Virus record (IMG/VR): IMGVR_UViG_3300032007_001569
Source: a virus
Lineage: Duplodnaviria > Heunggongvirae > Uroviricota > Caudoviricetes
DNA: 64,000 nucleotides
Direction: 5' to 3' (one strand)
Shown here in pieces: positions 18,757 to 52,473 of the stretch (its first letter is position 1; each line of letters opens with the position of its first letter). Both the position numbers and the translations under genes were made by a program. Below the pieces are notes generated by a model. It worked only from the letters and a program-made list of their open reading frames with translations. It ran no database searches and had not been told where the DNA came from.

Positions 18757-19737
18757 TCAGTGCGCAGCAACGTCCGCCTCGTGAAGAAGGATGATGTCGC
18801 GGTATAGTTCATCGCCAATCATGCGCCTATCTCGCTCCAAAGCCTTTTCTGACTGCTTCCATCCCATGAATGGGTGCATGTGGAAATAGATCATGTTGAT
18901 AATATCAACCTTTTCCTCGATGGAATAGTCAAGCGGTGCAAGATAGAACACGGCCATATACGCGCCTACGCATTGATGCTGGTAATAGTGGCAGTCGCCA
19001 TCCTCTTCGCCCTTCGCATTGACATAGCTCTTCGTTGCCAGCTTGCCGATGTCGTGCATAAACGCGGCGGCAAAAACCGTTTTGTGTGTCGGCGCTTTCT
19101 CCATGACATATTTCTGCGCAGCGAGACAATGTTGCCCAAGTGTCAGGCTGTGATGCCTGTTGCCTTGATTGAAATCCTTCATTTTCTCATACAATGACGA
19201 CAGCTCATATTCCGGCGCGCTGTAATAATCATAGCTGGAGAAATAAAAGTAAATCTGATTGAAGCCCTCATGGTAATGCGGCGGTTGCCAGTTCTTATAC
19301 ATCCGTTCAATCGCCCGTTCTGGAACCTTCCGTTCCCGTTCGCTGTTTCTGGTGAGGCAATCTTCAAAGGTTGTCATTACACAGATACAAACTTTCTCAC
19401 ATACGATACCGGCAATCTCATTGAGAAACGCCATGCGCTGTTTCTTGTTGATATTTGTCGCGTCGTAAATGACGTGCTTGCCATCCAACAGATCGCGCTT
19501 GATGCGCCGATGTAGCTCCGCGAAAAGCTGATTATTGTGGCGGTTGTCCTCTTCGCTTCCATATAGTTCAAGGCGCAGGGCATCGGATGAATGGATAACC
19601 GGGCGCGGATAAAACGCTTCGTCGGTTGCAATGATCTCGCCATCCTCAATGGCAAGCTGTTTCGCAAGGGATGTTTTGCCGCTGGCTGGCAAGCCTACGA
19701 GCATAATCAAAAAAGGCCAGTTCTTTTCCATATTCAA
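18757..19737 (-). CDS. P-loop kinase-HD phosphohydrolase fusion (polynucleotide kinase/phosphatase-like RNA end-healing enzyme)
   Basis: Walker A GLPASGKTS near the N-terminus and an HD motif FMHDIGK in the C-terminal half. Confidence 0.5.
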   Translation of the reverse strand: MNMEKNWPFLIMLVGLPASGKTSLAKQLAIEDGEIIATDEAFYPRPVIHSSDALRLELYGSEEDNRHNNQLFAELHRRIKRDLLDGKHVIYDATNINKKQRMAFLNEIAGIVCEKVCICVMTTFEDCLTRNSERERKVPERAIERMYKNWQPPHYHEGFNQIYFYFSSYDYYSAPEYELSSLYEKMKDFNQGNRHHSLTLGQHCLAAQKYVMEKAPTHKTVFAAAFMHDIGKLATKSYVNAKGEEDGDCHYYQHQCVGAYMAVFYLAPLDYSIEEKVDIINMIYFHMHPFMGWKQSEKALERDRRMIGDELYRDIILLHEADVAAH

Positions 19738-20506: not shown

Positions 20507-21571
20507 TTATCCGAGATCGTACATCACTCCCTCCTTTGTGAACCCCTTATTCAGCGAAGATGCGTTGATGTCCATGACAAATTCCTCGACGCGCTTCATA
20601 TCTGGATGGGGCGGCAAGTCGGTATGCTTCTTCGCGTAATCGAGTTCTACCTCCAAGTCCTCAATGCGGTCGAAGAACTCCTGCTGATAGGTTCCATCCT
20701 CATTTTGGTATAGGCCATTTCGGATGTTCAACAGCATTTCACGCTCTGCGTCGCTCCGGTAGGTCTTGATTTCCTCGTTCTCCAGAATGTCAATGCACAT
20801 GAGGTAGAGCCGGACAAGGTGCATCGCGTGCTTATTCAGATGGGCATCGTCTTTCTTGTGGTTTCTATGGCCTGTCTTTTCGTAGTCGCGGATGACGGCA
20901 GACAAAGTATTAATCATGGTCTGGAAGTCCCGCGCAGGATATTTGTTGATGTTCACATCACAAAACAGCTCATAATCCAAATCATCGCGGCTGCTCTTGT
21001 CCACATACAGCTTCATGCCGCCTTCGCCAAGGGGAACATGCTTGACCTCAAAGGCCGCGACTGCGTTTTTCGCGGAATGCAGGATGTGTTGCTCGGCCTT
21101 GCCCTGCGGCAGTTTGTCCCGCGCCAGCGCGTTTTCCAAGCGCTTTAGCTGCTGTGTGGCATAACCGCCAAATGAATAGGCCGCACGCTGCGACAGGAAC
21201 ATCTTTCGGTTCGCAATCAGCGCCTTGCCAGCCTCATTCATCATAAGATAGTGATCTGGCTTGCAGCCAAGCAGTTCAATGGTGTTTGGGTTGCAGTTCA
21301 GGAGCAGATTGACCAGCTTATTAAAGCCGTAGACCGTCGTGTCTGTCGCATTATTGATGAACTGCTCGAAATTTGAAAGGCCGATGAGGTCGCTTCGACT
21401 GTTGAAGGCGCAGCCGCGAATATCCAAGTCGGAAGTCTCCACGTTTGTTCCATAGGCATGACTTCCGGCCACGGTCAGAAACATGATGTTGTCACCCAGG
21501 CGCGGTTCCTTACGCAGGAAGTCATAATCTGGACTCTGGATTGTCGCCCGAATTTGCTCAATGGTCATTTT
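20507..21571 (-). CDS. Nucleotidyltransferase-fold protein (Pol beta superfamily)
   Basis: GSHAYGTNVETSDLDIRG is a GS...DxD NTase motif. The start was moved to the internal Met (MTIEQIRAT) to avoid a 118-nt overlap with the upstream gene. Confidence 0.45.
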   Translation of the reverse strand, partial: KMTIEQIRATIQSPDYDFLRKEPRLGDNIMFLTVAGSHAYGTNVETSDLDIRGCAFNSRSDLIGLSNFEQFINNATDTTVYGFNKLVNLLLNCNPNTIELLGCKPDHYLMMNEAGKALIANRKMFLSQRAAYSFGGYATQQLKRLENALARDKLPQGKAEQHILHSAKNAVAAFEVKHVPLGEGGMKLYVDKSSRDDLDYELFCDVNINKYPARDFQTMINTLSAVIRDYEKTGHRNHKKDDAHLNKHAMHLVRLYLMCIDILENEEIKTYRSDAEREMLLNIRNGLYQNEDGTYQQEFFDRIEDLEVELDYAKKHTDLPPHPDMKRVEEFVMDINASSLNKGFTKEGVMYDLG

Positions 21572-22359
21572 TTCATGTCCTCCAGCGCTTGCAGGTCGTC
21601 CAGCATGGTTACATCGAGGTATCGGCGCAGAATTGGCAACGCGCCATCGAGATACAGCTTGTAATACTCGCCAGCAAAACAACCACCGATTGCGCCCAGC
21701 GTGTCAGTGTCGCCTAACATGCTGATTGTCTTTCGCAGGAAATCTTCAAAGCTCTCGCTTTCATAGAAGCAACGAATTGCGACGGGCACACAATCTTGAC
21801 AGGTTGCGTTCCAGCGATATTTTTCACGGATGACATCGAGCGGCTGAGAGCAGGAGTATTTGTAATCCTCTGGCGGATATTGCTTCGTACCGTATTCGAG
21901 GATTTCGTTTTTGCTGGCTCCATTTCGCGCCATCCAGCCGCAAACGGCGGTAACAACCGCGCCATTGATACCCTCCGGGTGATTATGTGTAACAACTGCG
22001 GACTGCGCGGCCAGCTTAATAACCTCTTCTTTGCTGTCTGCGAAGTCAATGACCGGCGAAACGCGCATGGCAGAACCATTGCCAAAGCTGTTATATGGCG
22101 CTAGGTCGTCGCTGTTCAGCCACTCCTTGAACATGTTGCCATAGCCACGATCATAGTAAGCCCTCCCGTAGGAGTAGTAGGCGTCCTGAAACGACGCTTT
22201 GTCCTTCAGCGCATGTAGCGTCGCCATCGTGAGAACGGTGTCGTCTGTGAAATGGTTCTTTGCGGTGAAAAGCTCTACGTGCTCATAGTCAACCGGCTTG
22301 TGATTGAACTCGAAAGGCTGACCGGCAATGTCACCGAGGATTGCACCAATGACGCTCAT
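21565..22359 (-). CDS. ADP-ribosylglycohydrolase (DraG/ARH family)
   Basis: The N-terminus GAILGDIAGQPFEF and the TDDTVLTMA motif are characteristic of ARH hydrolases. Confidence 0.65.
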   Translation of the reverse strand: MSVIGAILGDIAGQPFEFNHKPVDYEHVELFTAKNHFTDDTVLTMATLHALKDKASFQDAYYSYGRAYYDRGYGNMFKEWLNSDDLAPYNSFGNGSAMRVSPVIDFADSKEEVIKLAAQSAVVTHNHPEGINGAVVTAVCGWMARNGASKNEILEYGTKQYPPEDYKYSCSQPLDVIREKYRWNATCQDCVPVAIRCFYESESFEDFLRKTISMLGDTDTLGAIGGCFAGEYYKLYLDGALPILRRYLDVTMLDDLQALEDMKK

Positions 22360-22362: not shown

Positions 22363-23670
22363 TTACACCGCCTCTTCTTTGACAAATTCCTCCGCCTCTT
22401 CCATATCTGGCGCATCGGACATGTCCTTGACAATCCCTTCAAGACATTTGAAGGCGAACCCCTTATGCTTGTAAGCCGTGAAAGACTCCCTATTGTCAAT
22501 GCGCACAACGACACCCTCACGAATGTGCGTTTTACCAATCGGATCGGGGCCTTCGTAGTATTTTTCTACGCGCGCCATGAGGTCTTCCCAAGTTGTATAA
22601 GTGAACTTCTCGAAAATCTTGACAAACTTGACGCCCATCTTTTCGCAAAGTAGCTTAACTTCCTCTGTCGGCATTTCTACGACAAAACCATCTTCATTGG
22701 TGAGCGTCATGCGATATACATAGCAGTCGTTTTCACCGGGCGCACAACCGTAATTAAAAACGGTCTCGTCTCCATAGAGTTTTGAAAACTCCTTATCCTT
22801 AATCAGGCTGTTCTTGCATCGCCCCATGATTGGCGTGGTTTCGCTCACCCAGCCGACGATCTCGTAGAAAACCTCTACGCCTTTAGGCAGACGCCCTGCG
22901 AAGAAATCGTGCCACTTTTTGCGGAAGTCATTGTCGCCGTAATAGCCGCCCGGCTCGAAATTGCGAAGCGTCGTTCGCCGCGTGCCACTTACCATGCGAT
23001 AAGTTCTCGTTTCGCCTGGATTAAGATGAAACACGCGCTGGAAGATGTTCTGCTTCTTCTTTGCAACAGAGATCGCATTGGCCGTGCGCGCGCTGGTGCC
23101 GTGCATCTTCAGCGTGATGTAGCAGGTATCGCCCGGCCTGAACGCCTTTTCATTGTAGGCGAGCTGCTCTGTGTCGATATGTTCAATGAAAAATGGGAAC
23201 TTTTCTTTTGATTCTGGTTTTGCAGACTTCGCCTTGTTGTGAGGCCCGTGCTGGATCGGCGTTGAACTGCGCGGGATGTACTTCCGGCAAATCTCATGGC
23301 CGTCAATCTCCGTGATCTGCGTGCCGTCCGCCAGTTTTTCAATATCGGTATATTTTGCAAGGACTTCAATGGGAAGCACCAGGCCGTCAGACTTTTCGCC
23401 GCGCAGTTTGATCGCGGTGATATTACGCTTGTTTGGGTCAAGATAGCCGCCGACGTTGTTGCCGTTCTCGTCGAGCTTCCTGACGAGGTTGTTATCGGCG
23501 CAAAACTCTTCGCTCAGTTGGCCGTCAACCGGGAAATAGACGATTCTCTGGCCTTCATGATAGCTCAGGTCAACGATGGTGTCGTTTCCGAAGATTGTCG
23601 CCACCTGAAGCCGGTCGGCGTTTCCGTGCTTTCTGATTTGCCTTATCGTTGTTACATATCCGCAGTACAT
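22363..23670 (-). CDS. ATP-dependent RNA ligase (Rnl, DraRnl/NgrRnl-like KxHG type)
   Basis: Nucleotidyltransferase motifs I KMHG, IV EGVVV and V YKHK, preceded by an N-terminal OB-like domain. Confidence 0.55.
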   Translation of the reverse strand: MYCGYVTTIRQIRKHGNADRLQVATIFGNDTIVDLSYHEGQRIVYFPVDGQLSEEFCADNNLVRKLDENGNNVGGYLDPNKRNITAIKLRGEKSDGLVLPIEVLAKYTDIEKLADGTQITEIDGHEICRKYIPRSSTPIQHGPHNKAKSAKPESKEKFPFFIEHIDTEQLAYNEKAFRPGDTCYITLKMHGTSARTANAISVAKKKQNIFQRVFHLNPGETRTYRMVSGTRRTTLRNFEPGGYYGDNDFRKKWHDFFAGRLPKGVEVFYEIVGWVSETTPIMGRCKNSLIKDKEFSKLYGDETVFNYGCAPGENDCYVYRMTLTNEDGFVVEMPTEEVKLLCEKMGVKFVKIFEKFTYTTWEDLMARVEKYYEGPDPIGKTHIREGVVVRIDNRESFTAYKHKGFAFKCLEGIVKDMSDAPDMEEAEEFVKEEAV

Positions 23671-35179: not shown

Positions 35180-35973
35180 TACTTCAAATCATCCTCAATC
35201 TCGCCCATTGCAGACGGCGCATTGAGGCATATCGTTGTGAAATTGTTGCTAAAAAACGAAGGGTAAAGCTCCTTCATAGCGCGAACATAGGCTTCCTTGC
35301 GGATGTTGATTTCATCCTCGCGCTTAGCTTCCGCCCGCTTCAACTGGCGATTGCGCTTCTTTTCAGCTTCCTTCTTGGCGCGCGTTGCTTTCTGCTCTTC
35401 GTCCATCTCAGCTTCGAGCTTTGCGTAAAAACCGTTGTCGTAAATCTTGACGGCGCGCTTAATGATCTTGTTGAAAATGGACTGACCAGCGCCAGGTAGC
35501 TTTATGTCGATCAGCTTTTTGGCAATGCAGATTGTGATGCCGGATTCGAGATCGCAGAAATCATCCCGCGAGCAGACGGCTTTTGTGCTCGTGTTGTCGG
35601 CGAAATCGACCTTCACCGCGAGGAAATAACTGTCGTAAACATCCTTGCCATCCTCATCATAGGTGTGCACCGCCACGATGTCGGGCATGATACCGTTCGC
35701 GTTGATGAGTTTCTGATTGGCGTACCTGCTGGCGCGCAACCTGCCATTTTCGCTTATCAAAATGGTCTTTGCTTCTGGCGGGACTGTCGCCGCTTCATTC
35801 TGCAGCCTAATCCTATCCGATTCGATTGCATTAATTATATCAGATGTGATAGTGTCTCCCAAACTTATCGTTTCGTCTGTCACGACATTCCTTATCGTTT
35901 CGTCTGTCACGACATTCGTATTTGATAAACCACCTGTACCAAACGGAAGTTTATAATCGGTAATTCTTCTCAT
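35179..35973 (-). CDS. hypothetical protein (basic KR-rich C-terminus; contains a 9-aa tandem repeat)
   Basis: 264 aa. The segment NVVTDETIR NVVTDETIS is encoded by a perfect 27-bp tandem duplication. Confidence 0.4.
   Translation of the reverse strand: MRRITDYKLPFGTGGLSNTNVVTDETIRNVVTDETISLGDTITSDIINAIESDRIRLQNEAATVPPEAKTILISENGRLRASRYANQKLINANGIMPDIVAVHTYDEDGKDVYDSYFLAVKVDFADNTSTKAVCSRDDFCDLESGITICIAKKLIDIKLPGAGQSIFNKIIKRAVKIYDNGFYAKLEAEMDEEQKATRAKKEAEKKRNRQLKRAEAKREDEINIRKEAYVRAMKELYPSFFSNNFTTICLNAPSAMGEIEDDLK
35864..35917 (-). repeat. Perfect 27-bp tandem duplication inside a CDS
   Basis: cttatcgtttcgtctgtcacgacattc occurs twice, giving a 9-aa direct repeat in protein 35179-35973. Confidence 0.8.
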
Positions 35974-36213: not shown

Positions 36214-36219
36214 AAAAAA

Positions 36220-36295
36220 TGGCGGCGGCGGGATTTGAACCCGCAGATAAGTAAGGTTTGAGCTTACCGCGTCTGCCGAATTGCGCCACGCCGCC
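36220..36295 (-). tRNA. tRNA with anticodon CAA (type I, Leu-like decoding)
   Basis: Manual fold: acceptor GGCGGCG/CGCCGCC, anticodon arm GGTAAG-CTCAAAC-CTTACT, T arm GCGGG-TTCAAAT-CCCGC. A short variable loop is unusual for a Leu identity. Confidence 0.6.
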
Positions 36296-36304
36296 AAATA
36301 ATAA

Positions 36305-36376
36305 AGCCAGCACAGGGACTTGAACCCTGAACCCCGCGCTTACAAGGCGCGTGCTCTGCCATTGAGCTATGCTGGC
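36305..36376 (-). tRNA. tRNA-Thr (anticodon TGT)
   Basis: Acceptor GCCAGCA/TGCTGGC, D arm GCTCAATGGCAGAGC, anticodon arm CGCGC-CTTGTAA-GCGCG, T arm CAGGG-TTCAAGT-CCCTG. Confidence 0.75.
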
Positions 36377-36740
36377 AAAATATCGGCTGATCTCTCCTAT
36401 CTCACGCTACCTGCGGCCTGAACACCATTGGTTGGTTCGCCGTTGCCTCTCCTGCGGCATTTCCTTTGCGCCGCTTGCCACGCCTCGCGCTGTTGAACCA
36501 GATTGACCAGCCGATAAATCGAGGTTGATTTTCAAACGATGCGCGCGTCATCCACGTCGCCAACCTCTTCCGCCTATTCACACTCGTCTGTGCAAGACCA
36601 ATCCTCCGCGAAACTCCGCGCGAAGAATGGCTCTATAATAATAAGTCTTGGCATTAATAGGCATTAAGCCGAGCGCGACTCTGATGACTGAGCCGCACTT
36701 CCCTATTGGAGTTTGGGCTTAAAATACGGACTAAGCCGCT

Positions 36741-36817
36741 GGTCGAGATGACATGATTTGCACATGCGGCCTCACGCTCCCAAAGCGTGCGCTCTGCTGA
36801 CTGAGCTACATCTCGCC
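36741..36817 (-). tRNA. tRNA-Pro-like (anticodon TGG), possibly degenerate
   Basis: Canonical D arm TAGCTCAGTCAGCAGAGC and anticodon arm CACGC-TTTGGGA-GCGTG. There is one acceptor mismatch and an atypical T loop, TGCAAAT. Confidence 0.45.
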
Positions 36818-37033
36818 GTTGATTTTGTTCCACCGCTGCGCCGCCAGGAGTGGCAAAGGCGCAATGTAAGTCATGGGCTTTACGGGGCATCTCTTCGATG
36901 AACGATTGCACCGCACAAAATAACCATCTATACCATAGTCCTGATAGTGGCTGATCTTCTTGGGAACCTTACCGCAGCCCTTGCATGGGCGAAGAACAAT
37001 GCCGATTGATGCCGGTTTGACAGCCACAATCAT
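36806..37033 (-). CDS. hypothetical small zinc-finger protein
   Basis: 75 aa with CKGCGK...VRC. Its 3' end overlaps the tRNA by about 12 nt. Confidence 0.3.
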   Translation of the reverse strand: MIVAVKPASIGIVLRPCKGCGKVPKKISHYQDYGIDGYFVRCNRSSKRCPVKPMTYIAPLPLLAAQRWNKINGEM

Positions 37034-37476
37034 TCCTCCTTCGGAGTGAATATGTCCGAATCCAGTTTTGGTTCTGGTACTGATTCAATTCCCTTGACCA
37101 TCTTGTAATACTTCAAATACTCTCGATCCACGAGCTGCATGTCGTTTATCATATCCTCGACAACGGCGCGGTTCCGCAAATTATCTCCAAAGGTTTGTTG
37201 GATTGCGTTCAGCTTCGCGCTGTATTCATTGGCGGTCAAGCCTTTCGCAAAATACTTATCCAGCACCACGTCTTTGCGGTGTTTACAGAAAATGCAGACA
37301 TACGGTTCGATGATGCTGATGCTACACTTGTATCTGTCGCCGTAGTATTGCATATCCCGTTCTGTTGACACTTCAAGATACCAGGGGAAATCAATATACT
37401 TGTGCTCGCATTCTTTCGGAGGCGCGATTTTGACAGGCGCGGCTTCTTTTCTTTTCCTTCTCCCGAACCCAAACAT
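37030..37476 (-). CDS. hypothetical protein
   Basis: The start was moved to the internal Met MFGFGRRKRK. Confidence 0.35.
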   Translation of the reverse strand: MFGFGRRKRKEAAPVKIAPPKECEHKYIDFPWYLEVSTERDMQYYGDRYKCSISIIEPYVCIFCKHRKDVVLDKYFAKGLTANEYSAKLNAIQQTFGDNLRNRAVVEDMINDMQLVDREYLKYYKMVKGIESVPEPKLDSDIFTPKEE

Positions 37477-37644
37477 AATCAAACCTCCTAAAAAGTCGCT
37501 GCCGGTCGGAGTTGCACCGCCCTCCCCCACTGTTTAGCCAGGGTGTACCACTGTTATACGAGACAGCTAACCGGGCGACCAACCCGGAATTATGTTAGTT
37601 TCTGCGCGCCGACTTACGACTCACTGGTTGCTGGCGCGGGTCTG

Positions 37645-37732
37645 GTGGTAGCGGCAGCGGGAGTTGAACCCGCACGGGTGAAGCCCAGTAGATTTTAAGT
37701 CTACTGCGTACTGCCAATTTCGCCATGCCGCC
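37645..37732 (-). tRNA. tRNA-Leu (anticodon TAA), class II, encoded CCA
   Basis: Anticodon arm GTAGA-CTTAAAA-TCTAC, long variable arm, T arm GCGGG-TTCAACT-CCCGC, and a 3' ACCA. Confidence 0.7.
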
Positions 37733-37934
37733 ATAGTCTACGCCAATTTGATACTGTACAGGCCGGACTTTACGGATTCTGATTTCCTGCCTTCCAGATG
37801 TGCGCATCATCTGACGCCATCCGGCCTGTAAGCCGCGCTCTTTCTGGCGGGTTAAGCGCGGGAGCCAACATTAATATTGAATGAAACCGGAGAAAAATGC
37901 AGGAATCATGTCGTTTACCTCGCTTTGTTACTGA

Positions 37935-38094
37935 TCGGGAACCTGGGACTCGAACCCAGGCAAAAACACGGCTTATTGGTGACGCTGGCGGGTCTTGCAC
38001 CCGCATACCCAAACTTGTTGAATGGCGCGCCAACGCTTTACTTTTGAAGCTACAGCGTCAAGGCCGCTGCTCTAACCGACTGAGCTAGTTCCCG
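37935..38094 (-). tRNA. tRNA gene interrupted in the anticodon loop by an 83-nt insert; predicted mature anticodon TAT (Ile-like) if the insert is removed between positions 34 and 35
   Basis: A perfect 7-bp acceptor pair CGGGAAC/GTTCCCG, a canonical D arm TAGCTCAGTCGGTTAGAGC and a T arm CTGGG-TTCGAGT-CCCAG lie 160 nt apart. The anticodon stem GCGGC...GCCGT flanks the insert at 37977-38059. Confidence 0.5.
37977..38059 (-). ncRNA. 83-nt tRNA-like insert nested inside the interrupted tRNA
   Basis: It has its own 7-bp terminal helix GACGCTG/CAGCGTC followed by ACCA, a D arm GCTT-CAAAAGTA-AAGC and a T arm GCGGG-TGCAAGA-CCCGC. The anticodon region is degenerate. Confidence 0.35.
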
Positions 38095-38100
38095 AAATGG

Positions 38101-38172
38101 AGCACTGGACGGGAGTTGAACCCGCCACATCAGATCGGAGGTCTGATATGTTACCAAATACACCACCAGTGC
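38101..38172 (-). tRNA. tRNA, probable Gly (anticodon TCC)
   Basis: Acceptor GCACTGG/CCAGTGC, anticodon arm TCAGA-CCTCCGA-TCTGA, T arm GCGGG-TTCAACT-CCCGT. Position 33 is C, which is atypical. Confidence 0.55.
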
Positions 38173-38441
38173 GAATCCGGTCTCTAAACAGCAAAACTTG
38201 ACCGGCGCGCGAGAGCAGATGCCGCACTCTCAACACAGTTTTTCGAGGGGCGTCCAGTTGGCACTTTGGTAGGACGTGATTACGCCGGGGTTACACCGAC
38301 AACCTCTATTGCAGACCCCATGTGACACTCGCGACGTGATGATAACCTATCCGCGCCGCGAGCGCCTGTTTCACGAGCTGGCCTACCCGACCGCATTGGC
38401 ATTCCGGCCTTCTGACCGGCGCTGTTTGCGGTGAAGTATAG

Positions 38442-38513
38442 AGCAGACAACGGGGATTGAACCCGCATTTCCGGCTTGGGAAGCCGGGGTGCTACCGATT
38501 ACACCATACCTGC
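38442..38513 (-). tRNA. tRNA-Gly (anticodon CCC)
   Basis: Anticodon arm CCGGC-TTCCCAA-GCCGG, T arm GCGGG-TTCAATC-CCCGT, and an acceptor with two GU pairs. Confidence 0.6.
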
Positions 38514-38617
38514 ATCCGGGGCGGTTTGCGTTGCGTCATGCTGCGCGCCGCAATGCGCAACGCCGATTCTCTGCGGCATTTTGGGACGCACACCGCCAGC
38601 TTTCCCACAATACTATT

Positions 38618-38692
38618 TGGTGCCGCATATGGTGGAGCGTGCGGGTTCTGCCCCCGCAACCTTCGGCTTGCAAAGCCGACGCGCTACTGTTG
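38618..38692 (-). tRNA. tRNA-Ala-like (anticodon TGC) with non-canonical D and T loops; encoded CCA
   Basis: Anticodon arm TCGGC-TTTGCAA-GCCGA. The D loop AACAGTA lacks G18G19 and the T loop GGCAGAA lacks TTC. Confidence 0.45.
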
Positions 38693-38872
38693 CGCCAACG
38701 CCCCATTTACGTGTTCCAGATGCGGTGTGATATGTGTCTTTGGCTTATGGCCGTTCAGACCAAGGCGTCTGTTGTACACCATCCGCTTACCATATCTCCT
38801 TGCATCTGGCATTGTCATTCTCTCTGAGGCATTACGTATGCTCTCAGATCATCCAGGCCGCTACCCGACTTC

Positions 38873-38946
38873 TGGCACTTTGGATAAGAATTGAACTCAT
38901 ACCTATGACCACAAGGTCATCGTGCTATCCTTTACACCACCAAAGT
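38873..38946 (-). tRNA. tRNA-like gene with a 6-nt anticodon loop (CTTGTG; Thr-TGT-like) and encoded CCA
   Basis: Acceptor ACTTTGG/CCAAAGT + G + CCA, and T arm ATGAG-TTCAATT-CTTAT. The anticodon stem ATGAC/GTCAT encloses only 6 nt. Confidence 0.4.
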
Positions 38947-38988
38947 ATAGTCCGCATAGCTCATCGCTGTAAGCCTTAATGCGGATGA

Positions 38989-39076
38989 TGCGGGCGACTG
39001 GATTTGAACCAGCAAAGGCCAATTAAGACCAGTCGGCTTCTAAGGCCGATGCGTGTGCCAATTTCGCCACGCCCGC
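38989..39076 (-). tRNA. tRNA-Leu (anticodon TAG), class II
   Basis: Acceptor GCGGGCG/CGCCCGC, anticodon arm TCGGC-CTTAGAA-GCCGA, a variable arm with a 4-bp stem, and T arm GCTGG-TTCAAAT-CCAGT. Confidence 0.7.
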
Positions 39077-39120
39077 AAGATCGGCGGAAATCGAACGCTC
39101 TACCCAAAGAAATGCTAGAT

Positions 39121-39144
39121 AGAAGGATGAACGTTCCAGCCGCC
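39121..39144 (+). repeat. Copy A1 of the conserved motif AGAAGGATGA-N-agccg
   Basis: agaaggatgaacgttccagccgcc; see the finding on the 5-copy motif. Confidence 0.6.
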
Positions 39145-39260
39145 TTTGAAGGAAATCGGAAATTTGAAGCTCTTTCTTTCACTTTGCTCTACCAACTGAG
39201 CTACATCGCCGGTAACGGCGATGGCTGGAGTCGAACCAGCGACACAAGCCTTGGCATAGA

Positions 39261-39282
39261 AGAAGGATGAGCTTCACAGCCG
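39261..39282 (+). repeat. Copy A2 of the conserved motif
   Basis: agaaggatgagcttcacagccg. Confidence 0.6.
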
Positions 39283-39302
39283 ATCACCTTTCAACTGTAC
39301 TT

Positions 39303-39331
39303 ATTATAACACCGTTAATCTATTTTGTCAA
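39303..39331 (-). promoter_or_regulatory. sigma70-type promoter P4, positioned to drive the tRNA array
   Basis: Minus strand TTGACAAAATAGATTAACGGTGTTATAAT with upstream AAATATTTCAAGAAAAATTGTCAAAAGG. The next downstream features are tRNAs at 39288 to 36220. Confidence 0.6.
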
Positions 39332-39363
39332 TACCTTTTGACAATTTTTCTTGAAATATTTTT

Positions 39364-41604
39364 TTAGAGCAGTTCGCCCATGAAATAATCCACATCATAC
39401 GGCGTGATGACGGGAATCTGCGTCTCTTCCCCATCGAGACCAACGCGGTAAACGGGCGTATTGTCCGGGCTGAAGATAATGTCTGCATCCTGCTTGTCGG
39501 CCACATGGAGACCCCGCGCGGCCATATTGAGCGCAATCAGATCATACATGTTCGGCTTGGCAATGTCCGTAAAGGCTTCGCAGATTACCTTGACGCGGTT
39601 GTAGTTTGTCGCCGCATTGTTCGGCCTACATACCGTATATCTTGATTCATACAGATCAAGATTCATGTCCATCCAGATAAAGCGCTTTTCAACGCAGTCG
39701 AACAGAACGGGGACGCTTGTTGTGCTGTTTGTCTGCAGTTTGATCGCCATTTCGACCGTGGACGGCTCGAAGATTTCTCCGTCGTCCAGGCCGCTCCGCT
39801 CCATCCAGCCAAACCGACAATTCGGCAAATTGCAAAACGGAATGCGCGTGAAGGCATAGACCTGATACGCGATATATCGCCCGCCGTTTCTGGTAACACT
39901 GTCGATGTCAACATCCAGAAACTCCGCGACGCCATCGCCGTCAACGGAGCCTCCGTCTACAATGTCACCGGAATGGTAGCCCTTAAACTTATCATCGCGC
40001 ATGTTATAGTAGGCAACTTCACCCATTCGGTTGAAGTCTTTATCCAGGACTGTCGCGGAAAGGTCAATGTCAACACGGTTATATTCCGTATTCGTCCACC
40101 AGATGAAGCCGCGCACGACCTTGGCGTCGCTGCCAATCGGAACCTTACTGCCCCTAGTCAGCGTCTTGTTTCCGCTGGACGCGCTACGCTGGCTGAAAGG
40201 CACAATGTAGTCCTTCATGGCTTCGTCGATGTATACGCAGCCCATGTTGTCGCGCTTTGCGTAGTTGATCTTCAGCGCTCGCTCACAGATATTGACCACC
40301 GTGTGACAAATCCCGTCAGTCATTTCCGGCAATTCATTTGGAATAATAATTGCCTTGGCGACATTGCCCTTCGGGAAGAATACCCTTGTTTCGCGCTTCT
40401 TTCCGCGCTCAATGAAAGACTGACGAACCTGCAGGAGAACAGATGTTGAAACCTTGTCGGCAATCATGGCGAAATGATTGATAACCGTGTTGACTTCGGC
40501 ACGATCCTTTGCATCGCGGATGAGCTTGTCAAGCCGTCGCGCAAATTCGCCCGGCCTCTTCATCAATAGCTCAGATACTTCAACGACATTATGCTTCTCC
40601 AGTCCGGTTTCAACCTGACCACCGAAATAGAGCGGCTTCTTTTCCTCGCGCAACATGTGGAAACAGTCGCGCACATTCTGATATTGACCACCCATAAACT
40701 CCGCAGGATGGATGATCTCGCCAATGCGCAACCATTCGTCACGATAACGGAACAGGTCTTCGTCGATCCTGCCCAGCTTCGCTAGGAGCTTCATGATGAA
40801 CCGGCGCTCAGGGCGACGCATGTGCTTGAACCTCGTCTCACTGGCAAGGCTCAAATCGCCATCAGACATGGCGACAATCAGGCGAAGAACGTCTGTGGCC
40901 GTGTTCATATACTTGCTGACAGCCTCGAAATTCCCTTCTGGGTTATTCTTCATCAGGAGATTGGCAATATAGGCCGCATTCTCCTTCATGGGAATCACGT
41001 CGGGCAGACGCTCAATCAGCGCGGGATATGAGGCAAAGATCGTCTTGATGTCCTCCAAATCCTGCTTGGACAAGGATGTCTTTGAGGCACATAGATTGAC
41101 GAGAATTTCACCCAAATCATTCTCATTGCCGATGCTCAGGACTGTCTTTTTGCCCGCGTTCAGAAGAGGCATACGAGGCTCAGACTTATACTCCGGCATC
41201 CATTGTCCAGCCGTGAAGTAGTGGAGAATTGCGTTGACAAACAGCTCCGCGTCGGACGCCTCCGCCACCTGCTGTGGGAAATTCGGGTACATGGGCTTAT
41301 AGGTCACGTCAGCACCGCGCAACGCCTTGAGCATGGGAAGGAGTGCTTCATGAAGCCCGATGAGCGCCGGGCGGGTGTATGTCATGAGAACCTTCAGCAC
41401 GTCGAAATCAAAAGTATAGCCCAGCGCCTCAACGTTGTTTGTTACGGCGACGACATAGCGGGCAATCTCTGTCTGCGCGCCTTCAACCTGGTCGAAGTGC
41501 GTGTCCATCGGCTGGATGGTCAGCTTGTTCTTTCGGCGCAAGAGGATTTCGCTGATGTTGAACTCCATTGTATCAATCCTTTCAAAATAAAAGTAGGAAA
41601 TCAT
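39364..41604 (-). CDS. Large protein with a C-terminal TerD-like (Ca-binding tellurite-resistance/stress) domain
   Basis: SGDIVDGGSVDGDGVAEFLDVDIDSV...RYIAYQVYAF matches the TerD pattern GDxxxG..DGDG..E.L.VDL....I.F.V.IY. The N-terminal roughly 500 aa are unassigned. Confidence 0.45.
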   Translation of the reverse strand: MISYFYFERIDTMEFNISEILLRRKNKLTIQPMDTHFDQVEGAQTEIARYVVAVTNNVEALGYTFDFDVLKVLMTYTRPALIGLHEALLPMLKALRGADVTYKPMYPNFPQQVAEASDAELFVNAILHYFTAGQWMPEYKSEPRMPLLNAGKKTVLSIGNENDLGEILVNLCASKTSLSKQDLEDIKTIFASYPALIERLPDVIPMKENAAYIANLLMKNNPEGNFEAVSKYMNTATDVLRLIVAMSDGDLSLASETRFKHMRRPERRFIMKLLAKLGRIDEDLFRYRDEWLRIGEIIHPAEFMGGQYQNVRDCFHMLREEKKPLYFGGQVETGLEKHNVVEVSELLMKRPGEFARRLDKLIRDAKDRAEVNTVINHFAMIADKVSTSVLLQVRQSFIERGKKRETRVFFPKGNVAKAIIIPNELPEMTDGICHTVVNICERALKINYAKRDNMGCVYIDEAMKDYIVPFSQRSASSGNKTLTRGSKVPIGSDAKVVRGFIWWTNTEYNRVDIDLSATVLDKDFNRMGEVAYYNMRDDKFKGYHSGDIVDGGSVDGDGVAEFLDVDIDSVTRNGGRYIAYQVYAFTRIPFCNLPNCRFGWMERSGLDDGEIFEPSTVEMAIKLQTNSTTSVPVLFDCVEKRFIWMDMNLDLYESRYTVCRPNNAATNYNRVKVICEAFTDIAKPNMYDLIALNMAARGLHVADKQDADIIFSPDNTPVYRVGLDGEETQIPVITPYDVDYFMGELL

Positions 41605-41720
41605 GGCGGCTGAATTGTGGTCATGGGCGACAACCCATGTAATTTCAAAGAAGGAAGCCGCCGTATAGCCTAAACCATATCCACCGGAAATTGAGGCATC
41701 AAGTTACATCCAAAAATAAC

Positions 41721-41743
41721 AGAAGGATGACGCCTCATAGCCG
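41721..41743 (+). repeat. Copy A3 of the conserved motif
   Basis: agaaggatgacgcctcatagccg. Confidence 0.6.
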
Positions 41744-41761
41744 GATGGGCGATTGATTATC

Positions 41762-42304
41762 TTACGGCCATTCGCCCAGCGGACACGCGGCCTTCTGCGT
41801 GCCGTACAGCGCTCCCGTCTCCTCGGGGAGATCGGTGCAGAAGAACACGCCTTCCATCACGCCGAACAGATTGTGGGCGATATTTTCGTAGAGCGTGCTG
41901 CACTGTCCGTAGATGTCGCCAAGGTCATCATTAAAATACTGAACGACCTTATTCTTGAACACGACATAGGTCAGATCATTTGTGAAAATGCCCCTGATGC
42001 GCTTCACAAACGAGAACGCATCGTTCCCCTTGAACGCGGTCTGGAACACGTCAGCCATAGCGGTGGGCACACCGACAAAACCATTGGCCGGAACCACATT
42101 GACATACAGCGTGACGTTGCCAAATTCCTTCTGGTCTGGAAGGAGCTGGGACAGCGCCTCCGCCTTTGCACCGCTATCGACATACAGCGTCAGCCGATAA
42201 TTTTCATCGTCAAAGACGACATGCACTTCGGGATCGTGACGGAACATCTCTGCCGTTTCTTTTGCGAAAGTGACCCACGGTGGGGCGAGTTTAATCTTTG
42301 CCAT
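41762..42304 (-). CDS. hypothetical protein
   Basis: 180-aa ORF flanked by motif copies A3 and A4. Confidence 0.4.
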   Translation of the reverse strand: MAKIKLAPPWVTFAKETAEMFRHDPEVHVVFDDENYRLTLYVDSGAKAEALSQLLPDQKEFGNVTLYVNVVPANGFVGVPTAMADVFQTAFKGNDAFSFVKRIRGIFTNDLTYVVFKNKVVQYFNDDLGDIYGQCSTLYENIAHNLFGVMEGVFFCTDLPEETGALYGTQKAACPLGEWP

Positions 42305-42384
42305 TTATCTTTTCTCCTTTTCTGTTCGTGTCGTTTGGAAAATGCGGAAATCGGGCGATCAAACAATATCGTCTATTAAAAGGA

Positions 42385-42407
42385 AGAAGGATGACCGCCC
42401 ATAGCCG
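42385..42407 (+). repeat. Copy A4 of the conserved motif
   Basis: agaaggatgaccgcccatagccg. Confidence 0.6.
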
Positions 42408-42475
42408 CAAAGTGACTGTGCTCCCTTCGGAAATCAAAGCGCCAGAACATCAATAATTACCACTTATTTGTTAAT

Positions 42476-42497
42476 AGAAGGATGACGCTTTCAGCCG
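42476..42497 (+). repeat. Copy A5 of the conserved motif
   Basis: agaaggatgacgctttcagccg. It directly abuts the 3' end of tRNA-Lys. Confidence 0.6.
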
Positions 42498-42510
42498 AAG
42501 GCCGACGAGC

Positions 42511-42585
42511 TGGTGGCCTGACCGGGAGTCGAACCCGGCATATGCACATTAAAAGTGTGCTGCCATACCGCTTGGCTACCAGGCC
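42511..42585 (-). tRNA. tRNA-Lys (anticodon TTT), encoded CCA
   Basis: Acceptor GGCCTGG/TCAGGCC, D arm GCCA-AGCGGTA-TGGC, anticodon arm GCACA-CTTTTAA-TGTGC, T arm CCGGG-TTCGACT-CCCGG, and a 3' ACCA. Confidence 0.8.
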
Positions 42586-42666
42586 AGATAGTGTCGGTCT
42601 CTCCCGACTGCCAATCCTCTTTGTTCATTTGAAATGTTGCTTTTGAGGATTCAGCGCACCTTTCAT

Positions 42667-42754
42667 TTGGCGACGGCGGCTGGATTTGAACCAGCGGAGG
42701 CGCGAGCCTCGGCGGTTTTCAAGACCGCTGCAATAAGCCACTCTGCCACGCCGC
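42667..42754 (-). tRNA. tRNA-Ser (anticodon TGA), class II, encoded CCA
   Basis: Acceptor GGCGGCG/CGCCGTC, anticodon arm GCGGT-CTTGAAA-ACCGC, a 16-nt variable arm, T arm GCTGG-TTCAAAT-CCAGC, and a 3' GCCA. Confidence 0.75.
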
Positions 42755-42758
42755 CGCA

Positions 42759-43106
42759 TTATTCCCAGCCTAAAAACTCATACATCCTTTTGAGATCGTC
42801 TGGATCGTCAAGGCGGAATGAATAGCTTTCATTGCCACTATACAATGTTATCACATAGATGCTACCATCTCGTGTGTCAAACTTGAAACTGACATACTTA
42901 AACATACGCCGCCCTTCATGGTTCACATCGGCCATATTCGCCCAGCTATTCATGAACATGATGTTGTCATATATCTTGCTGACTTCCTGAATCGTCATCA
43001 GACAACCTCCATGGTTTATGATCGGGCGTGGATTTGCACCACGCATGTATGTTGCCATACCGTTTATTAGGCTACATGGAAGGACATTACATCTTCGTGC
43101 TCCCAC
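42759..43106 (-). CDS. hypothetical protein
   Basis: 115-aa ORF. Confidence 0.35.
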   Translation of the reverse strand: MGARRCNVLPCSLINGMATYMRGANPRPIINHGGCLMTIQEVSKIYDNIMFMNSWANMADVNHEGRRMFKYVSFKFDTRDGSIYVITLYSGNESYSFRLDDPDDLKRMYEFLGWE

Positions 43107-43182
43107 TTAACTGGTGGGCGCTACTGATTCTCGCTACACACAACCAACGCCTGTCTACCTTATTCCAGCACCGATCAGACTG

Positions 43183-43482
43183 TTACCACAATTCATTCTG
43201 CAGGTCATAGTGCTTCCGATAGGCATTGCCATCTGAAACATCTTCGCTGTGCCTGACACGGCGATTCGACTGCTGCTTCAAAAACCGCTTGCGCTCACTG
43301 CTGCTGTTCTCCTTGACGTGGTTTCCGGTGACAATCCACCTTCCATCCACATACTCTTCCTTCACCCAGCCGACAAACGGCAGATACCGACCGGCCACAA
43401 TTTCCAGCAGACGCCTCCGCGCCTTGCGCTGTACCTTACGGCGATAACCACGATCCCTGTTCCTGGCGATTCTCTCTTCCAT
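43183..43482 (-). CDS. hypothetical basic protein
   Basis: 99 aa, rich in Arg and Lys. Confidence 0.3.
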   Translation of the reverse strand: MEERIARNRDRGYRRKVQRKARRRLLEIVAGRYLPFVGWVKEEYVDGRWIVTGNHVKENSSSERKRFLKQQSNRRVRHSEDVSDGNAYRKHYDLQNELW

Positions 43483-43589
43483 TTATCATCCCTCCTGATA
43501 AATTGGCTGAGGCTGTGAGGGTCGAACTCACATTGCGGGAGTCAAAGTCCCGTGTCCTACCGTTTGAACGAAACCTCATTGTGCCGGAA

Positions 43590-50644: not shown

Positions 50645-50830
50645 TTATGTCTTCGCGTGAACCTCAACACGAACCTTAGCCCACCCGAAATTCAGAAGAT
50701 GCTTTTCAAGCTCTTCCGCATCCTTGTAGGCCGCTTCCTCGCAGAAATAGTCGCCGCACTCCTTTGTCTCTGACGGCTCCGCGTCATACTTATTTTCCTT
50801 CCAGATCATGACCTTCAGATAGTACCTCAT
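50645..50830 (-). CDS. small protein translationally coupled to the DGR reverse transcriptase
   Basis: The RT stop TGA overlaps this ORF's ATG (ATGA) at 50827-50830. The product is 61 aa and acidic. Confidence 0.35.
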   Translation of the reverse strand: MRYYLKVMIWKENKYDAEPSETKECGDYFCEEAAYKDAEELEKHLLNFGWAKVRVEVHAKT

Positions 50831-51834
50831 TCAGTTTCCTCCGATATTTCAAAACGGTTCTTCTTGAGCAATTCATCCACCATGCTATCAAGGCTGGCAA
50901 TCAGGCGCTTACAGTTCCCGTGGCTCAGGTGGTTTTTCATTGAGCTATATATCACATCGAACTCATCCACGCTCATTTCGCCATTCTGAGCTTTTGCAAT
51001 CAGCTTGCGAATCTTTTTCTTCATGCCGCGCTTCTTTGCGCCATTGAGAAGGCGAATGACTTTGCCATCGTCCGTCACGTAGAAATGAAAGCCCAGGAAT
51101 TTGATTCCCTTCCGCAGCGGGACGATCTCTGTTTTCTCATTCAGCGTCAAATCCAGGCTTGCCAATAGCTTTTTAATGTCATCAAGCAGAGCTTTCAGCG
51201 CTTCGCGGCCTTCTGAAATGACATAGAAATCGTCCATGTATCTTCCGTACCTGCTGAACCCTCTTTCGGTTGTTATCATTTCGTCCAAGCGCATCAAATA
51301 CATCAGGGCGAAAACCTGGCTTGCCTGATTGCCCAACGGGAGGCCGATGCCCTCCGTGCTGTCAATTAAAAGATTACAAATCCACCTGATCCTCTCGTCG
51401 TCAAAGTGCTGCTCGACGACGCGCTTCATTTTCTCATGATTGATTGAATAGAAGAACTTCCTTATATCGCATTTCAGAATATAACCGTTTAGTCCGTGCT
51501 CCGCATAGAAACCGGACAGATGATCGGACAGCGTGTTCAGCCCGAAATCCGTTCCCTTGCCCACCTGCCCGGCAAAATTGGTCGAAATGAAGCTGTCTTT
51601 CAGCTTCGGCAAAAGGACATAATCACATAGGCAATGCTGAAGAACTTTGTCGCGGAACGAACCGACCATGATGACGCGACGCTTTGGCTCAGTCACAATC
51701 AGCTCATGGTATGGCGCTACTTTATATGTTCCATCCACGAGTTGCCGCTTCATTAATTGAATATTCTCCAAGGCATAGCGCTTAAATTCCTGCGCTTCCG
51801 CGCTGCGCCTTCTTCCGAGAAGCGACCGCTTCAT
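50827..51834 (-). CDS. Diversity-generating retroelement reverse transcriptase
   Basis: RT motifs are in order: CDIRKFF (motif A), the DGR-specific GIGLPLGNQASQ ([I/L]GxxxSQ replacing the group-II QGxxxSP), RYMDDFYV (YMDD) and KFLGFHF. The adjacent TR/VR pair supports the call. Confidence 0.85.
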   Translation of the reverse strand: MKRSLLGRRRSAEAQEFKRYALENIQLMKRQLVDGTYKVAPYHELIVTEPKRRVIMVGSFRDKVLQHCLCDYVLLPKLKDSFISTNFAGQVGKGTDFGLNTLSDHLSGFYAEHGLNGYILKCDIRKFFYSINHEKMKRVVEQHFDDERIRWICNLLIDSTEGIGLPLGNQASQVFALMYLMRLDEMITTERGFSRYGRYMDDFYVISEGREALKALLDDIKKLLASLDLTLNEKTEIVPLRKGIKFLGFHFYVTDDGKVIRLLNGAKKRGMKKKIRKLIAKAQNGEMSVDEFDVIYSSMKNHLSHGNCKRLIASLDSMVDELLKKNRFEISEETE

Positions 51835-51994
51835 AGACCGATAAAGGTTCCCGAAGTCGGTCAGCTTCTCAAAATCAGATAATGACTTTTGTATTTATCC
51901 CACCCTCTTTCGGCGAGAAAGGCTATACGCTCTTTTGATGTGGCGCTCTCCTTTGAGCTTCAACAGAAACCTAATCGCTCTCACAATCCACCAG

Positions 51995-52467: not shown

Positions 52468-52473
52468 TAAGAT

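Follow-up and report, generated by a model that had tools for sequence, protein, structure and literature searches.

How can a tRNA gene be functional when its anticodon is interrupted by what looks like a second tRNA? The question arises from a 64,000-nucleotide (nt) stretch of phage DNA (Caudoviricetes; IMG/VR record IMGVR_UViG_3300032007_001569), hereafter the window, in which a gene for tRNA-Ile(UAU) is divided by an 83-nt insert that itself has the shape of a tRNA. The answer we favor – and to which we assign a probability of roughly 0.5 – is that this is a functional phage gene, interrupted at U34/A35 by a tRNA-shaped RNA that would be excised by enzymes acting on tRNA ends, the two halves then being rejoined by an RNA ligase.

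A tRNA gene nested within a tRNA gene

All features of the split gene are on the minus strand, the 160 nt being read from 38094 to 37935. The 5′ exon (38060..38094) reads CGGGAAC TA GCTC AGTCGGTTA GAGC A GCGGC CTT and supplies the 5′ strand of the acceptor stem, the D arm, the 5′ strand of the anticodon stem, and C32, U33 and U34. The insert (37977..38059) follows as GACGCTG TA GCTT CAAAAGTA AAGC ... GCGGG TGCAAGA CCCGC CAGCGTC ACCA. The 3′ exon (37935..37976), ATAA GCCGT GTTTTTGC CTGGG TTCGAGT CCCAG GTTCCCG A, provides A35, U36, A37 and A38, the 3′ strand of the anticodon stem, an 8-nt variable loop, the T arm, the 3′ strand of the acceptor stem and A73; CCA is not encoded after A73 in the window, and a copy of the gene in a second assembly (L191) has ACCA. 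The insertion point is thus internal to the anticodon, between positions 34 and 35 (U34|A35). These assignments rest on the sequence itself, on ARAGORN in intron mode, on splicing in silico, and on how the gene aligns with unsplit homologues and eight further split genes. An initial annotation, made from the DNA letters without database searches, had described a perfect acceptor stem, D and T arms and an insert spanning 37977-38059: re-reading of the minus strand shows these limits to be exact to the base.

With default settings ARAGORN overlooks the outer split gene; the 11 tRNAs that it does report for the window are all on the minus strand. Intron mode, a check that the initial annotation had suggested, recovers the outer gene with an 83-nt intron and labels it Thr(TGT). 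Splicing in silico gives a predicted tRNA of 77 nt with the exon junction GCGGCCUU|AUAAGCCG, which ARAGORN identifies as tRNA-Ile(tat), as had been anticipated; all 21 helix pairs form and the mature anticodon loop, CUUAUAA, has the 7 nt of a cloverleaf. The unconstrained minimum free energy (MFE) fold of the 160-nt precursor is nested: it contains the outer acceptor stem, the outer anticodon stem, the inner acceptor stem and both T arms.

The label Thr(TGT) was rejected. Among split Ile homologues the first base of the insert is either G or C and CTT|...|ATAA is constant; because the first base varies while the flanks do not, the mature loop is taken to be CUUAUAA (Ile-UAU). The labels Thr, Pro, Arg and Gly that ARAGORN gives to split genes are artefacts of an intron forced to position 37/38.

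The nested gene is real. A near-identical copy is present in an independent assembly (L191) and some 20 analogous genes exist elsewhere, and for these reasons chance and assembly artefact are ruled out.

The insert resembles a tRNA but lacks a canonical anticodon arm

The Rfam tRNA model (RF00005) matches the insert at 37980-38059 (minus strand) with 35.5 bits (gathering score 29; E = 0.00098 over the whole window and 5.3e-6 locally), in keeping with the earlier description of an insert with its own 7-bp terminal helix, D and T arms and 3′ ACCA. The insert in L191 differs by three substitutions, one of which converts a T-stem G-C pair into G.U, and scores 29.4 bits. As a feature it may be read either as an intron or as a nested gene for a tRNA-like RNA: a 7-bp terminal helix, U8A9, a D arm, a non-canonical anticodon-arm region, a T arm (GCGGG-TGCAAGA-CCCGC) and the 3′ ACCA. 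In the tRNA register its minihelix has 7/7 acceptor pairs and 5/5 T-stem pairs, with ACCA as tail; the MFE fold of the insert retains the terminal helix and the 4-nt tail, and prefers short GC hairpins in the anticodon-arm region. A canonical anticodon arm (5-bp stem, 7-nt loop, U33) is missing: ARAGORN fits only an 8-nt loop with a 4-base 'anticodon' (CGCC) and no residue 26. On this ground we class the insert as tRNA-like rather than as a decoding tRNA.

The window insert and its L191 counterpart make up what we call family A; contigs with 97%-identical p166 and 96%-identical p746 (both neighboring proteins) stop before the split gene. The best matches to a covariance model of family A are the phage's own tRNAs – Thr-UGU, and Ala-UGC with a similarly odd T loop – and the family has the look of a tRNA derivative whose anticodon arm has degenerated. 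Searched over 1.27 Mb of related loci, the same model found ordinary tRNAs only and no free-standing copy of family A, and an exact 25-mer of the insert had no match in IMG/VR. Inspection of the junctions revealed no target-site duplications and no flanking or terminal repeats. Excision at the DNA level was ruled out on the absence of flanking repeats.

Known kinds of intron were also considered and set aside. The initial annotation had judged 83 nt far too small for a group I intron and this holds: such introns have about 200 nt or more with a P3-P8 core, and there is no Intron_gpI match, nor a match to any intron family, in the Rfam scan at E<=10. Small self-cleaving ribozymes (hammerhead, twister, HDV-like, pistol, hatchet) have no match at that threshold in 37850-38200 or in the family B element described below. 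For a bulge-helix-bulge (BHB) intron, the MFE fold has the wrong form – the anticodon stem, an asymmetric internal loop and an 8-bp inner helix – and the junction is at 34/35, not 37/38.

Selection on the interrupted tRNA

Further split Ile genes were retrieved from IMG/VR and metagenomes with a gapped pattern based on the exons; since the pattern fixed the anticodon arm, invariance of that arm among the retrieved genes is by design. Another split Ile gene had come to light through homologues of the 746-amino-acid protein of the tRNA array (see below): the locus L007 has a neighboring protein 73% identical to that of the window, and reads, right after tRNA-Gly(UCC), ...GCGGC-CTT | GGGGAAA...TTTCTCC-ACCA | ATAA-GCCGT...: the insert is unrelated in sequence, and is again tRNA-shaped. 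Unsplit genes for tRNA-Ile(UAU) with an identical anticodon arm and the loop CTTATAA (sequence GAGCAGCGGCCTTATAAGCCG) were found on 92 viral contigs. Some share the unusually long variable loop of the window gene, and one, in L274, scores 69.5 bits. These genes serve as empty sites that mark the insertion point.

When the nine distinct split Ile genes were spliced in silico and aligned, 189/189 pair cells proved to be standard (100%). Nine pairs have changed on both sides, including six of the seven acceptor pairs that join the exons across the insert. None of 500 shuffles reached the observed pairing values, and in slid controls pairing dropped to 27-46%. Outer acceptor stems also differ, with full compensation, among genes holding inserts of the same family: CGGGAAC vs CGTTCCC in family C, CGGGAAC vs CGATCCC in family D, and CGAAGCC, CGGGAAC and CCTCCAT in family B. 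The sole Trp gene found in the stretches of L270 and L278 that were examined is the split one, and related arrays have an intact Trp gene. Given that the exons pair through compensatory changes, and that unsplit CTTATAA homologues exist, we conclude that selection acts on the host tRNA and that its halves have to be joined again.

These observations bear on a less generous reading, in which a selfish tRNA-like element or a duplicated tRNA has recently inactivated tRNA-Ile and left a pseudogene. The occurrence of family B in three host tRNAs and on its own suggests mobility or recombinational shuffling, and in a close relative of the window (L001) the genes at this position are arranged differently, both of which this reading would accommodate. 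Against it, the nine split Ile genes show no decay, phages with marker proteins of only ~50-70% identity carry an insert at the same site, acceptor stems have diverged in compensatory fashion within insert families without loss of the split genes, and the junctions show neither target-site duplications nor terminal repeats. We consider inactivation very unlikely. Of the three options left standing by the initial annotation – a novel mini-intron, a nested tRNA-like mobile insertion and a pseudogene – it is the last that is disfavored; the first two are supported and, given a family of inserts that also occurs free-standing, are compatible with one another.

Among GTDB species representatives the split Ile pattern had no match, and at that stringency the arrangement was not seen in bacterial chromosomes. 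Most metagenomic matches to the pattern were false positives, either coding sequence or soil-bacterial tRNA-Lys with ATAAGCCG 84 nt later. The latter are a separate observation: in soil metagenome loci L160-L200 (for example L181:3402-3506) a ATAAGCCG-type segment is repeated ~84 nt after its occurrence in tRNA-Lys(UUU), in what looks like an integration-site (att) duplication unrelated to the split gene.

Diverse inserts share a minihelix

Nested inserts are not confined to Ile genes. We recorded 22 instances (20 distinct inserts, 44-119 nt) in gut and rumen phage contigs, where Ile, Lys, Trp, Thr, Arg, Gln, Glu and Leu tRNAs, eight isoacceptors in all, are interrupted. Every junction falls at 34/35 or 35/36, and removal of exactly N1 to N76 always (22/22) leaves a loop of 7 nt whose anticodon suits the tRNA body – CCA with G73 for Trp, for example, and UAA with a long variable arm for Leu. 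The base preceding the insert is U in 20 of the 22. Across the 20 distinct inserts the only common parts are a terminal helix (6-7 of 7 bp paired), an abutting hairpin in tRNA register with 5 bp and a 7-nt loop (all five pairs in 13 inserts, at least three in all 20), and a 4-nt tail: ACCA in 12, and GCCA, TCCA, ACAA, GCAA or ACCC in the other eight. Inserts of 44-49 nt, having neither D nor anticodon arm, are little more than minihelices. Comparison of the inserts shows that the predicted minihelix is under selection. Its form is that of a substrate for RNase P and for 3′ processing: an acceptor helix stacked on a T-arm hairpin, with a single-stranded NCCA-type tail.

The Ile genes carry four insert families, A to D. 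Family B has conserved loops (AAAGA, AAAGCAAGGG and GGCRGTA) and covarying stems; it corresponds to no Rfam family, even at E<=10, and has no match in GenBank phages. It is also portable: a motif search found it nested in Ile, Lys and Trp genes as well as free-standing beside tRNA genes. The Lys(UUU) arrangement is CTTT|...GCCA|TAA, and that of Trp(CCA) is CTCC|...ACCA|AAA, with G73. In L272 and L274 family B is found 4 nt downstream of an unsplit tRNA-Ile(UAU) that matches the exons of split genes. The free-standing form is a 75-nt gene of rumen phages (L269, L272, L273, L274 at 170-244, L275 and L279) that adjoins tRNA genes and is laid out as GGGGnnn-TA-GTGT-AAAGA-ACAC ... AAAGCAAGGG ... 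GGGCAGTAC ... NCCA.

Family C is a canonical tRNA (48-49 bits) that has a canonical anticodon arm and the anticodon CUA, that of an amber suppressor. It is nested in tRNA-Ile(UAU) at L061:1030-1106 (minus strand), L063:60-135 and L176:635-710; free-standing CUA tRNAs were noted in L270 and L276. The presence of the suppressor suggests that these rumen phages recode TAG, and that its production is perhaps coupled to maturation of tRNA-Ile. Family D is tRNA-like with a non-canonical anticodon loop. Loci around ligase genes (see below) hold further nested Lys, Thr(UGU), Gln(UUG), Arg(UCU), Glu(UUC), Leu(UAA) and Ile genes, the Arg(UCU) gene enclosing a canonical tRNA-Phe(GAA).

Two other unusual arrangements were noted in passing. 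Two T-arm-like hairpins and a very long variable region mark a 126-nt tRNA-like gene at L002:7019-7144 (also in L003 and L004), between tRNA-Ser(UGA) and tRNA-Lys(UUU). ARAGORN reports it as 'Glu(ctc) with a 34-nt intron', and it may represent a further case of nesting, this time in the variable region. The motif GGCKGYTNNNGAGNNTCATCCTTCT recurs beside 5′ or 3′ halves of tRNAs in relatives of the window phage (L013:12599-12913, L014:5938-6080, L016/L017, L018:12625-12873 and L041), where ARAGORN in intron mode reports introns of 49-290 nt.

An RNA-repair cassette

Rejoining of tRNA halves would call for a ligase, and the window encodes a candidate within an RNA heal-and-seal cassette (18757-23670, minus strand) that is part of the replication module, 14-19 kb from the split gene. 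The genes are ordered kinase-HD protein, 200-amino-acid open reading frame (ORF), RlaP, 123-amino-acid ORF and ligase; at the level of domains the set comprises a ligase with a lysine nucleotidyl-transferase motif, a polynucleotide kinase and a phosphoesterase.

The ligase (22363..23670, minus strand), a candidate exon sealer, is an ATP-dependent RNA ligase of the DraRnl (Rnl5) type with an N-terminal OB domain: Pfam PF09414 matches with 33.2 bits (cut-off 27), PF21189 covers the OB domain, and NCBIfam TIGR02306 (RNA_lig_DRB0094) gives E 3.6e-17. Motif I, T-x-K-x-H-G-T-S, is conserved in 60 of 66 homologues scanned and absent from only three; homologues are named 'RNA ligase family protein' and come from Lachnospiraceae, which makes Firmicutes the probable hosts. 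An AlphaFold model has a mean predicted local distance difference test (pLDDT) score of 49 and is confident in the OB domain only, and neither phmmer nor a profile search against PDB sequences gave a ligase match. The RlaP gene (20507..21682, minus strand) encodes an RNA-repair-associated nucleotidyltransferase (Pfam PF10127, E 1e-19). The kinase-HD protein (18757..19737, minus strand), a candidate RNA end-healing enzyme, is a fusion of a polynucleotide-kinase-like P-loop domain with an HD phosphohydrolase (Pfam AAA_33, KTI12 and HD): it matches 4gp7-type PDB chains of 171 residues and the NCBIfam bacterial Pnkp kinase (E 4.7e-9), and its HD region is like that of the CCA-adding enzyme (E 2.9e-10).

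The cassette recurs with nested tRNAs. A 151-kb contig with a split tRNA-Lys (Ga0139361_1000013; L400) has ligase, RlaP and kinase in the same gene order, with RlaP adjoining the ligase, ~19 kb from the split gene; this contig has diverged from the window (marker protein 55% identical, ligase 72%). In L281, L285 and L377 the distance between nested tRNAs and a ligase gene is ~3.6-9.6 kb, and nested tRNAs are present in three of seven ligase loci that hold tRNA arrays. In L278 a kinase, a metallophosphoesterase and a DUF2828 protein are encoded ~4 kb from a split tRNA-Trp. The apparent tie between cassette and split tRNA is thus one of genomic linkage, seen in the window itself, on the split-Lys contig and in L281, L285 and L377.

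A model for maturation

What was observed directly is the anatomy of the nested gene, its recurrence and exact boundaries, selection on the outer tRNA and on the minihelix, and the presence of the ligase cassette; each enzymatic step that follows, cleavage and ligation alike, is an inference built upon these. The precursor would fold as a tRNA nested in a tRNA, in which the insert offers a 7-bp acceptor helix on a T arm, U(-1) and a 3′ ACCA. Bacterial RNase P has the acceptor/T minihelix with NCCA as its classical minimal substrate and prefers U(-1) as leader base; in bacteria, maturation of tRNA 3′ ends concludes with NCCA-3′. RNase P would cut just 5′ of insert G1, leaving U34 with a 3′-OH, and a second endonuclease would cut right after the insert CCA, leaving A35 with a 5′-phosphate; an RNase Z/BN-like enzyme is the simplest guess for the latter, and a phage-encoded nuclease or another host endonuclease is equally possible. 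An 83-nt tRNA-like RNA would be released: because minihelix and 4-nt tail are the anatomy common to all inserts, we picture it leaving as RNA with mature tRNA ends. Pairing in the acceptor and anticodon stems would keep the halves of tRNA-Ile together, the anticodon loop being nicked. Ends of the kind left by RNase P/Z-type cuts, 3′-OH and 5′-phosphate, suit an ATP-dependent Rnl-type ligase; the phage DraRnl-like ligase, which would seal the nick to give the loop CUUAUAA, is the obvious candidate, and the kinase-HD protein would be available should ends need healing. That these phages have an undescribed tRNA splicing pathway of precisely this form – a minihelix-mimic intron in the anticodon, excised by RNase P and a post-CCA cut and joined by a phage Rnl-type ligase – we advance tentatively, at odds somewhat short of even.

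Several points weigh against the proposal. The RNase Z of Firmicutes is inhibited by CCA, and the 3′ cut must fall exactly after CCA; insert tails, moreover, are not always CCA (ACAA, GCAA and ACCC occur). A pair between U(-1) and A73 could shift the RNase P cut by one base and yield the loop CUAAUAA, against which the unsplit homologues argue for CUUAUAA. The end-healing enzymes fit a cut that leaves cyclic phosphate and 5′-OH at least as well as they fit one by RNase P/Z, and the ligase family is widespread in this phage group with or without a split tRNA nearby. The compensatory differences between split genes could in part be older than independent insertions. Lastly, phages of the same kind carry a second class of insert, 41-53 nt long and not tRNA-like, with the conserved motif AAUGCG-hairpin-CGCUAACAGCAA(U/G)GUU, apparently located in the 5′ strand of the anticodon stem (~28/29) of Asn-like genes. 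This class cannot be a substrate of RNase P, and it follows that these phages must have at least one other route of excision. Loci of the second class are L297, L332, L333, L348, L354 (three in a row, 3831-4185), L363 and L377:12781-12900; all adjoin ligase genes.

The foremost alternative, which we hold to be unlikely, begins from the same precursor and replaces the nucleases. A dedicated phage or host endonuclease would read the nested fold and leave 2′,3′-cyclic phosphate and 5′-OH ends, to be healed by the kinase-HD protein and sealed by the ligase: a bacterial analogue of the Trl1 pathway of yeast and plants. The window has the complete heal-and-seal set that this demands (Pnkp-related kinase, CCA-enzyme-like HD domain, ligase), the kinase, metallophosphoesterase and DUF2828 genes of L278 are near its split tRNA-Trp, the second class of inserts needs another nuclease anyway, and several conserved proteins with no assigned function are encoded inside the tRNA array. 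What a dedicated endonuclease leaves unexplained is why the sole invariant of 20 inserts is a minihelix of RNase P type with an NCCA tail and U(-1). No candidate nuclease was found, and p166 and p264, two proteins associated with the array, are also present in relatives in which no split tRNA was found.

It is improbable, too, that the nested gene serves the inner RNA alone, the halves never being rejoined, no mature tRNA-Ile(UAU) being made, and the body of tRNA-Ile acting as a scaffold for transcription and processing or as a supply of tRNA halves. Among the inserts are bona fide tRNAs and conserved RNAs that occur free-standing as well, which would imply a function of their own, and processing of the inner RNA necessarily splits the outer tRNA. 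Yet the two parts of the loop always combine into one of canonical size, 7 nt, whose anticodon matches the rest of the tRNA; compensatory changes have preserved the D arm, the T arm and the pairing of the acceptor strands on either side of the insert; and a scaffold needs neither an intact anticodon nor isotype features such as the G73 of Trp. Split genes also occupy isoacceptor slots that in relatives are held by intact genes.

An intron of known type (group I or II, a pair of self-cleaving ribozymes, or a BHB intron cut by EndA) has almost no claim on the data: position 34/35 is used as well by the group I intron of cyanobacterial tRNA-Leu(UAA), but an insert of 83 nt, as short as 44 nt in relatives, has no intron or ribozyme family in the Rfam scan of 37850-38200 at E<=10, and the predicted helix, asymmetric loop and helix are without the two 3-nt bulges 4 bp apart and are not at 37/38.

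Having weighed these, we return to excision by tRNA-end enzymes and ligation as the preferred account of the split gene, and turn to its genomic surroundings.

Genomic setting

The window is a phage genome with nearly all genes on the minus strand. It encodes a Pol III alpha-like polymerase, a primase, DnaB, a Sak recombinase, NrdD and ThyX, in addition to several DNA methylases, a reverse transcriptase and an integrase; megablast and blastn searches of the locus against GenBank phages gave no close relative and generic tRNA similarity only. ARAGORN and Rfam together define a tRNA array at 36219..43578 (minus strand) with 13 conventional tRNA genes, mostly for A-ending codons, plus the split Ile gene; the Rfam scan of the window lists 13 tRNAs, the insert itself among them. 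The split gene is the only Ile tRNA that either program finds in the window, where ATA makes up 11% of Ile codons. Immediately upstream, at a distance of 3 nt, is tRNA-Gly(UCC) (38098..38172, minus strand; ARAGORN, Rfam and synteny). Because the two are so close, and tRNA-Gly(UCC) is the neighbor in L007 and L191 as well, they are probably co-transcribed.

Other members of the array are atypical. A tRNA-Ala(UGC) at 38630-38704 (minus strand) has the D loop AACAGTA and the T loop GGCAGAA; it scores 56 bits with Rfam and is missed by ARAGORN. For the gene next to it (38873-38946, minus strand; 50.7 bits with Rfam) ARAGORN gives 'tRNA-???' and an anticodon of two bases (tg). Among nested inserts, GGCRGYA-type T loops are found repeatedly.

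Within the array is a 746-amino-acid protein (39364-41604, minus strand) of high conservation; its homologues, found on gut phage-like contigs, number more than 3000. It matches NCBIfam NF041916 (the MXAN_6230/SCO0854 RING-domain family) below cut-off, and in one source it goes by the name TerD family protein; as a single query it retrieved nothing from IMG/VR, where an alignment query worked. Two small conserved ORFs, p166 (37030-37530) and p264 (35179-35973), accompany tRNA arrays in relatives, and p264 has a weak match to the tRNA-binding domain of TmcA. A reverse transcriptase (RVT_1, 335 amino acids) near a DUF6273 protein (50827-53100, minus strand), with a syntenic counterpart in L007, could be a diversity-generating retroelement. 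In the 73%-identical relative L001 (4402-4812) the position of the split Ile gene is taken by an ORF for an HNH/AP2-like homing endonuclease followed by tRNA(CAU), which, if lysidine-modified, would be an alternative decoder of AUA.

Relation to known systems

An object of this kind has been glimpsed once before, and was never characterized. Introns in the anticodon loop of tRNAs of Lak megaphages were called 'enigmatic', and the one in a 'tRNA Thr(TGT)' was predicted to form a tRNA of its own, with the true excision point slightly off the guess of the software (Devoto et al., bioRxiv 10.1101/356790; Nat Microbiol 2019). Compared by description only, the cases agree – a phage tRNA is split in the anticodon loop by a predicted tRNA, and the window gene is likewise mislabelled Thr(TGT) – and differ in that the Lak phages are ~540-kb phages of Prevotella whose introns were reported without a mechanism, a common anatomy or a link to RNA ligase. 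Beyond that report our literature search found no description of tRNA-shaped introns or of a mechanism, a later Lak paper repeating only that the introns exist. New here are the anatomy of minihelix, tail and U(-1), the portability of inserts, the range of isoacceptors, the nesting of true tRNAs, and the linkage to an RNA-ligase cassette.

Parts of the proposed pathway have counterparts elsewhere. In the tRNA punctuation of animal mitochondrial transcripts, in plant mitochondrial t-elements and in the mascRNA of MALAT1, a tRNA-shaped module sets two precise cuts, made by RNase P at its 5′ side and by RNase Z at its 3′ side, and what is conserved in the present inserts is just such a module; there the flanks are separate RNAs that are never rejoined, whereas here they are two halves of one tRNA, for which ligation is needed. 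Phage T4 provides a precedent for the sealing step. Its Pnkp and Rnl1 reseal a break made by PrrC beside the wobble base of tRNA-Lys, and the window likewise has genes for a kinase (the kinase-HD protein) and an ATP-dependent ligase; T4, however, mends damage inflicted by a host-defense nuclease, while in the split gene the break would be programmed by gene architecture, and the window ligase belongs with Rnl5/DraRnl enzymes instead of Rnl1.

Archaeal and eukaryal splicing (EndA/TSEN with RtcB or Trl1) is, as proposed for the window gene, a protein-dependent cutting and ligation of a short anticodon-loop intron, and yeast tRNA-Ile(UAU) and tRNA-Lys(UUU) carry introns; it differs in its BHB and in the position of the intron (37/38, against 34/35 or 35/36), and the present inserts mimic a tRNA in a bacterial/phage setting. 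The group I intron of cyanobacterial tRNA-Leu(UAA) also splits a bacterial-domain tRNA within the anticodon at 34/35, but introns of this class are self-splicing ribozymes, unlike inserts that are too short for one and match no Rfam intron model. Finally, the split and permuted tRNA genes of Nanoarchaeum equitans and Cyanidioschyzon merolae are, like the nested genes, odd architectures that need extra processing; their halves are at separate loci or permuted, with BHB or circular intermediates, in contrast to halves that are collinear around a tRNA-like module.

Implications

To our knowledge, tRNA introns in the bacterial domain are thought to be almost exclusively self-splicing group I ribozymes, and protein-dependent cut-and-ligate splicing of tRNA is considered a hallmark of archaea and eukaryotes. 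If our proposal is true, the nested genes would represent a third solution to tRNA splicing: the intron borrows the shape of a tRNA, universal tRNA-end nucleases excise it, and a ligase closes the loop. The 'enigmatic' introns of megaphage tRNAs would be explained, and the many orphan RNA ligase and RNA-repair cassettes of phages would gain a concrete physiological substrate – a housekeeping role beyond the repair of damage by anticodon nucleases. Were the genes spliced in this way, standard tRNA finders would be shown systematically to miss or mislabel nested genes, which affects analyses of codon usage and recoding in phages.

For the phages themselves, expression of their own genes would become a condition for the maturation of selected tRNAs (Ile-UAU, Lys-UUU, Trp, Gln, Glu, Thr, Arg and Leu). 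Some precursors would each give rise to two tRNAs, as where an amber suppressor is contained in tRNA-Ile, and that particular nesting hints at coupled control of recoding.

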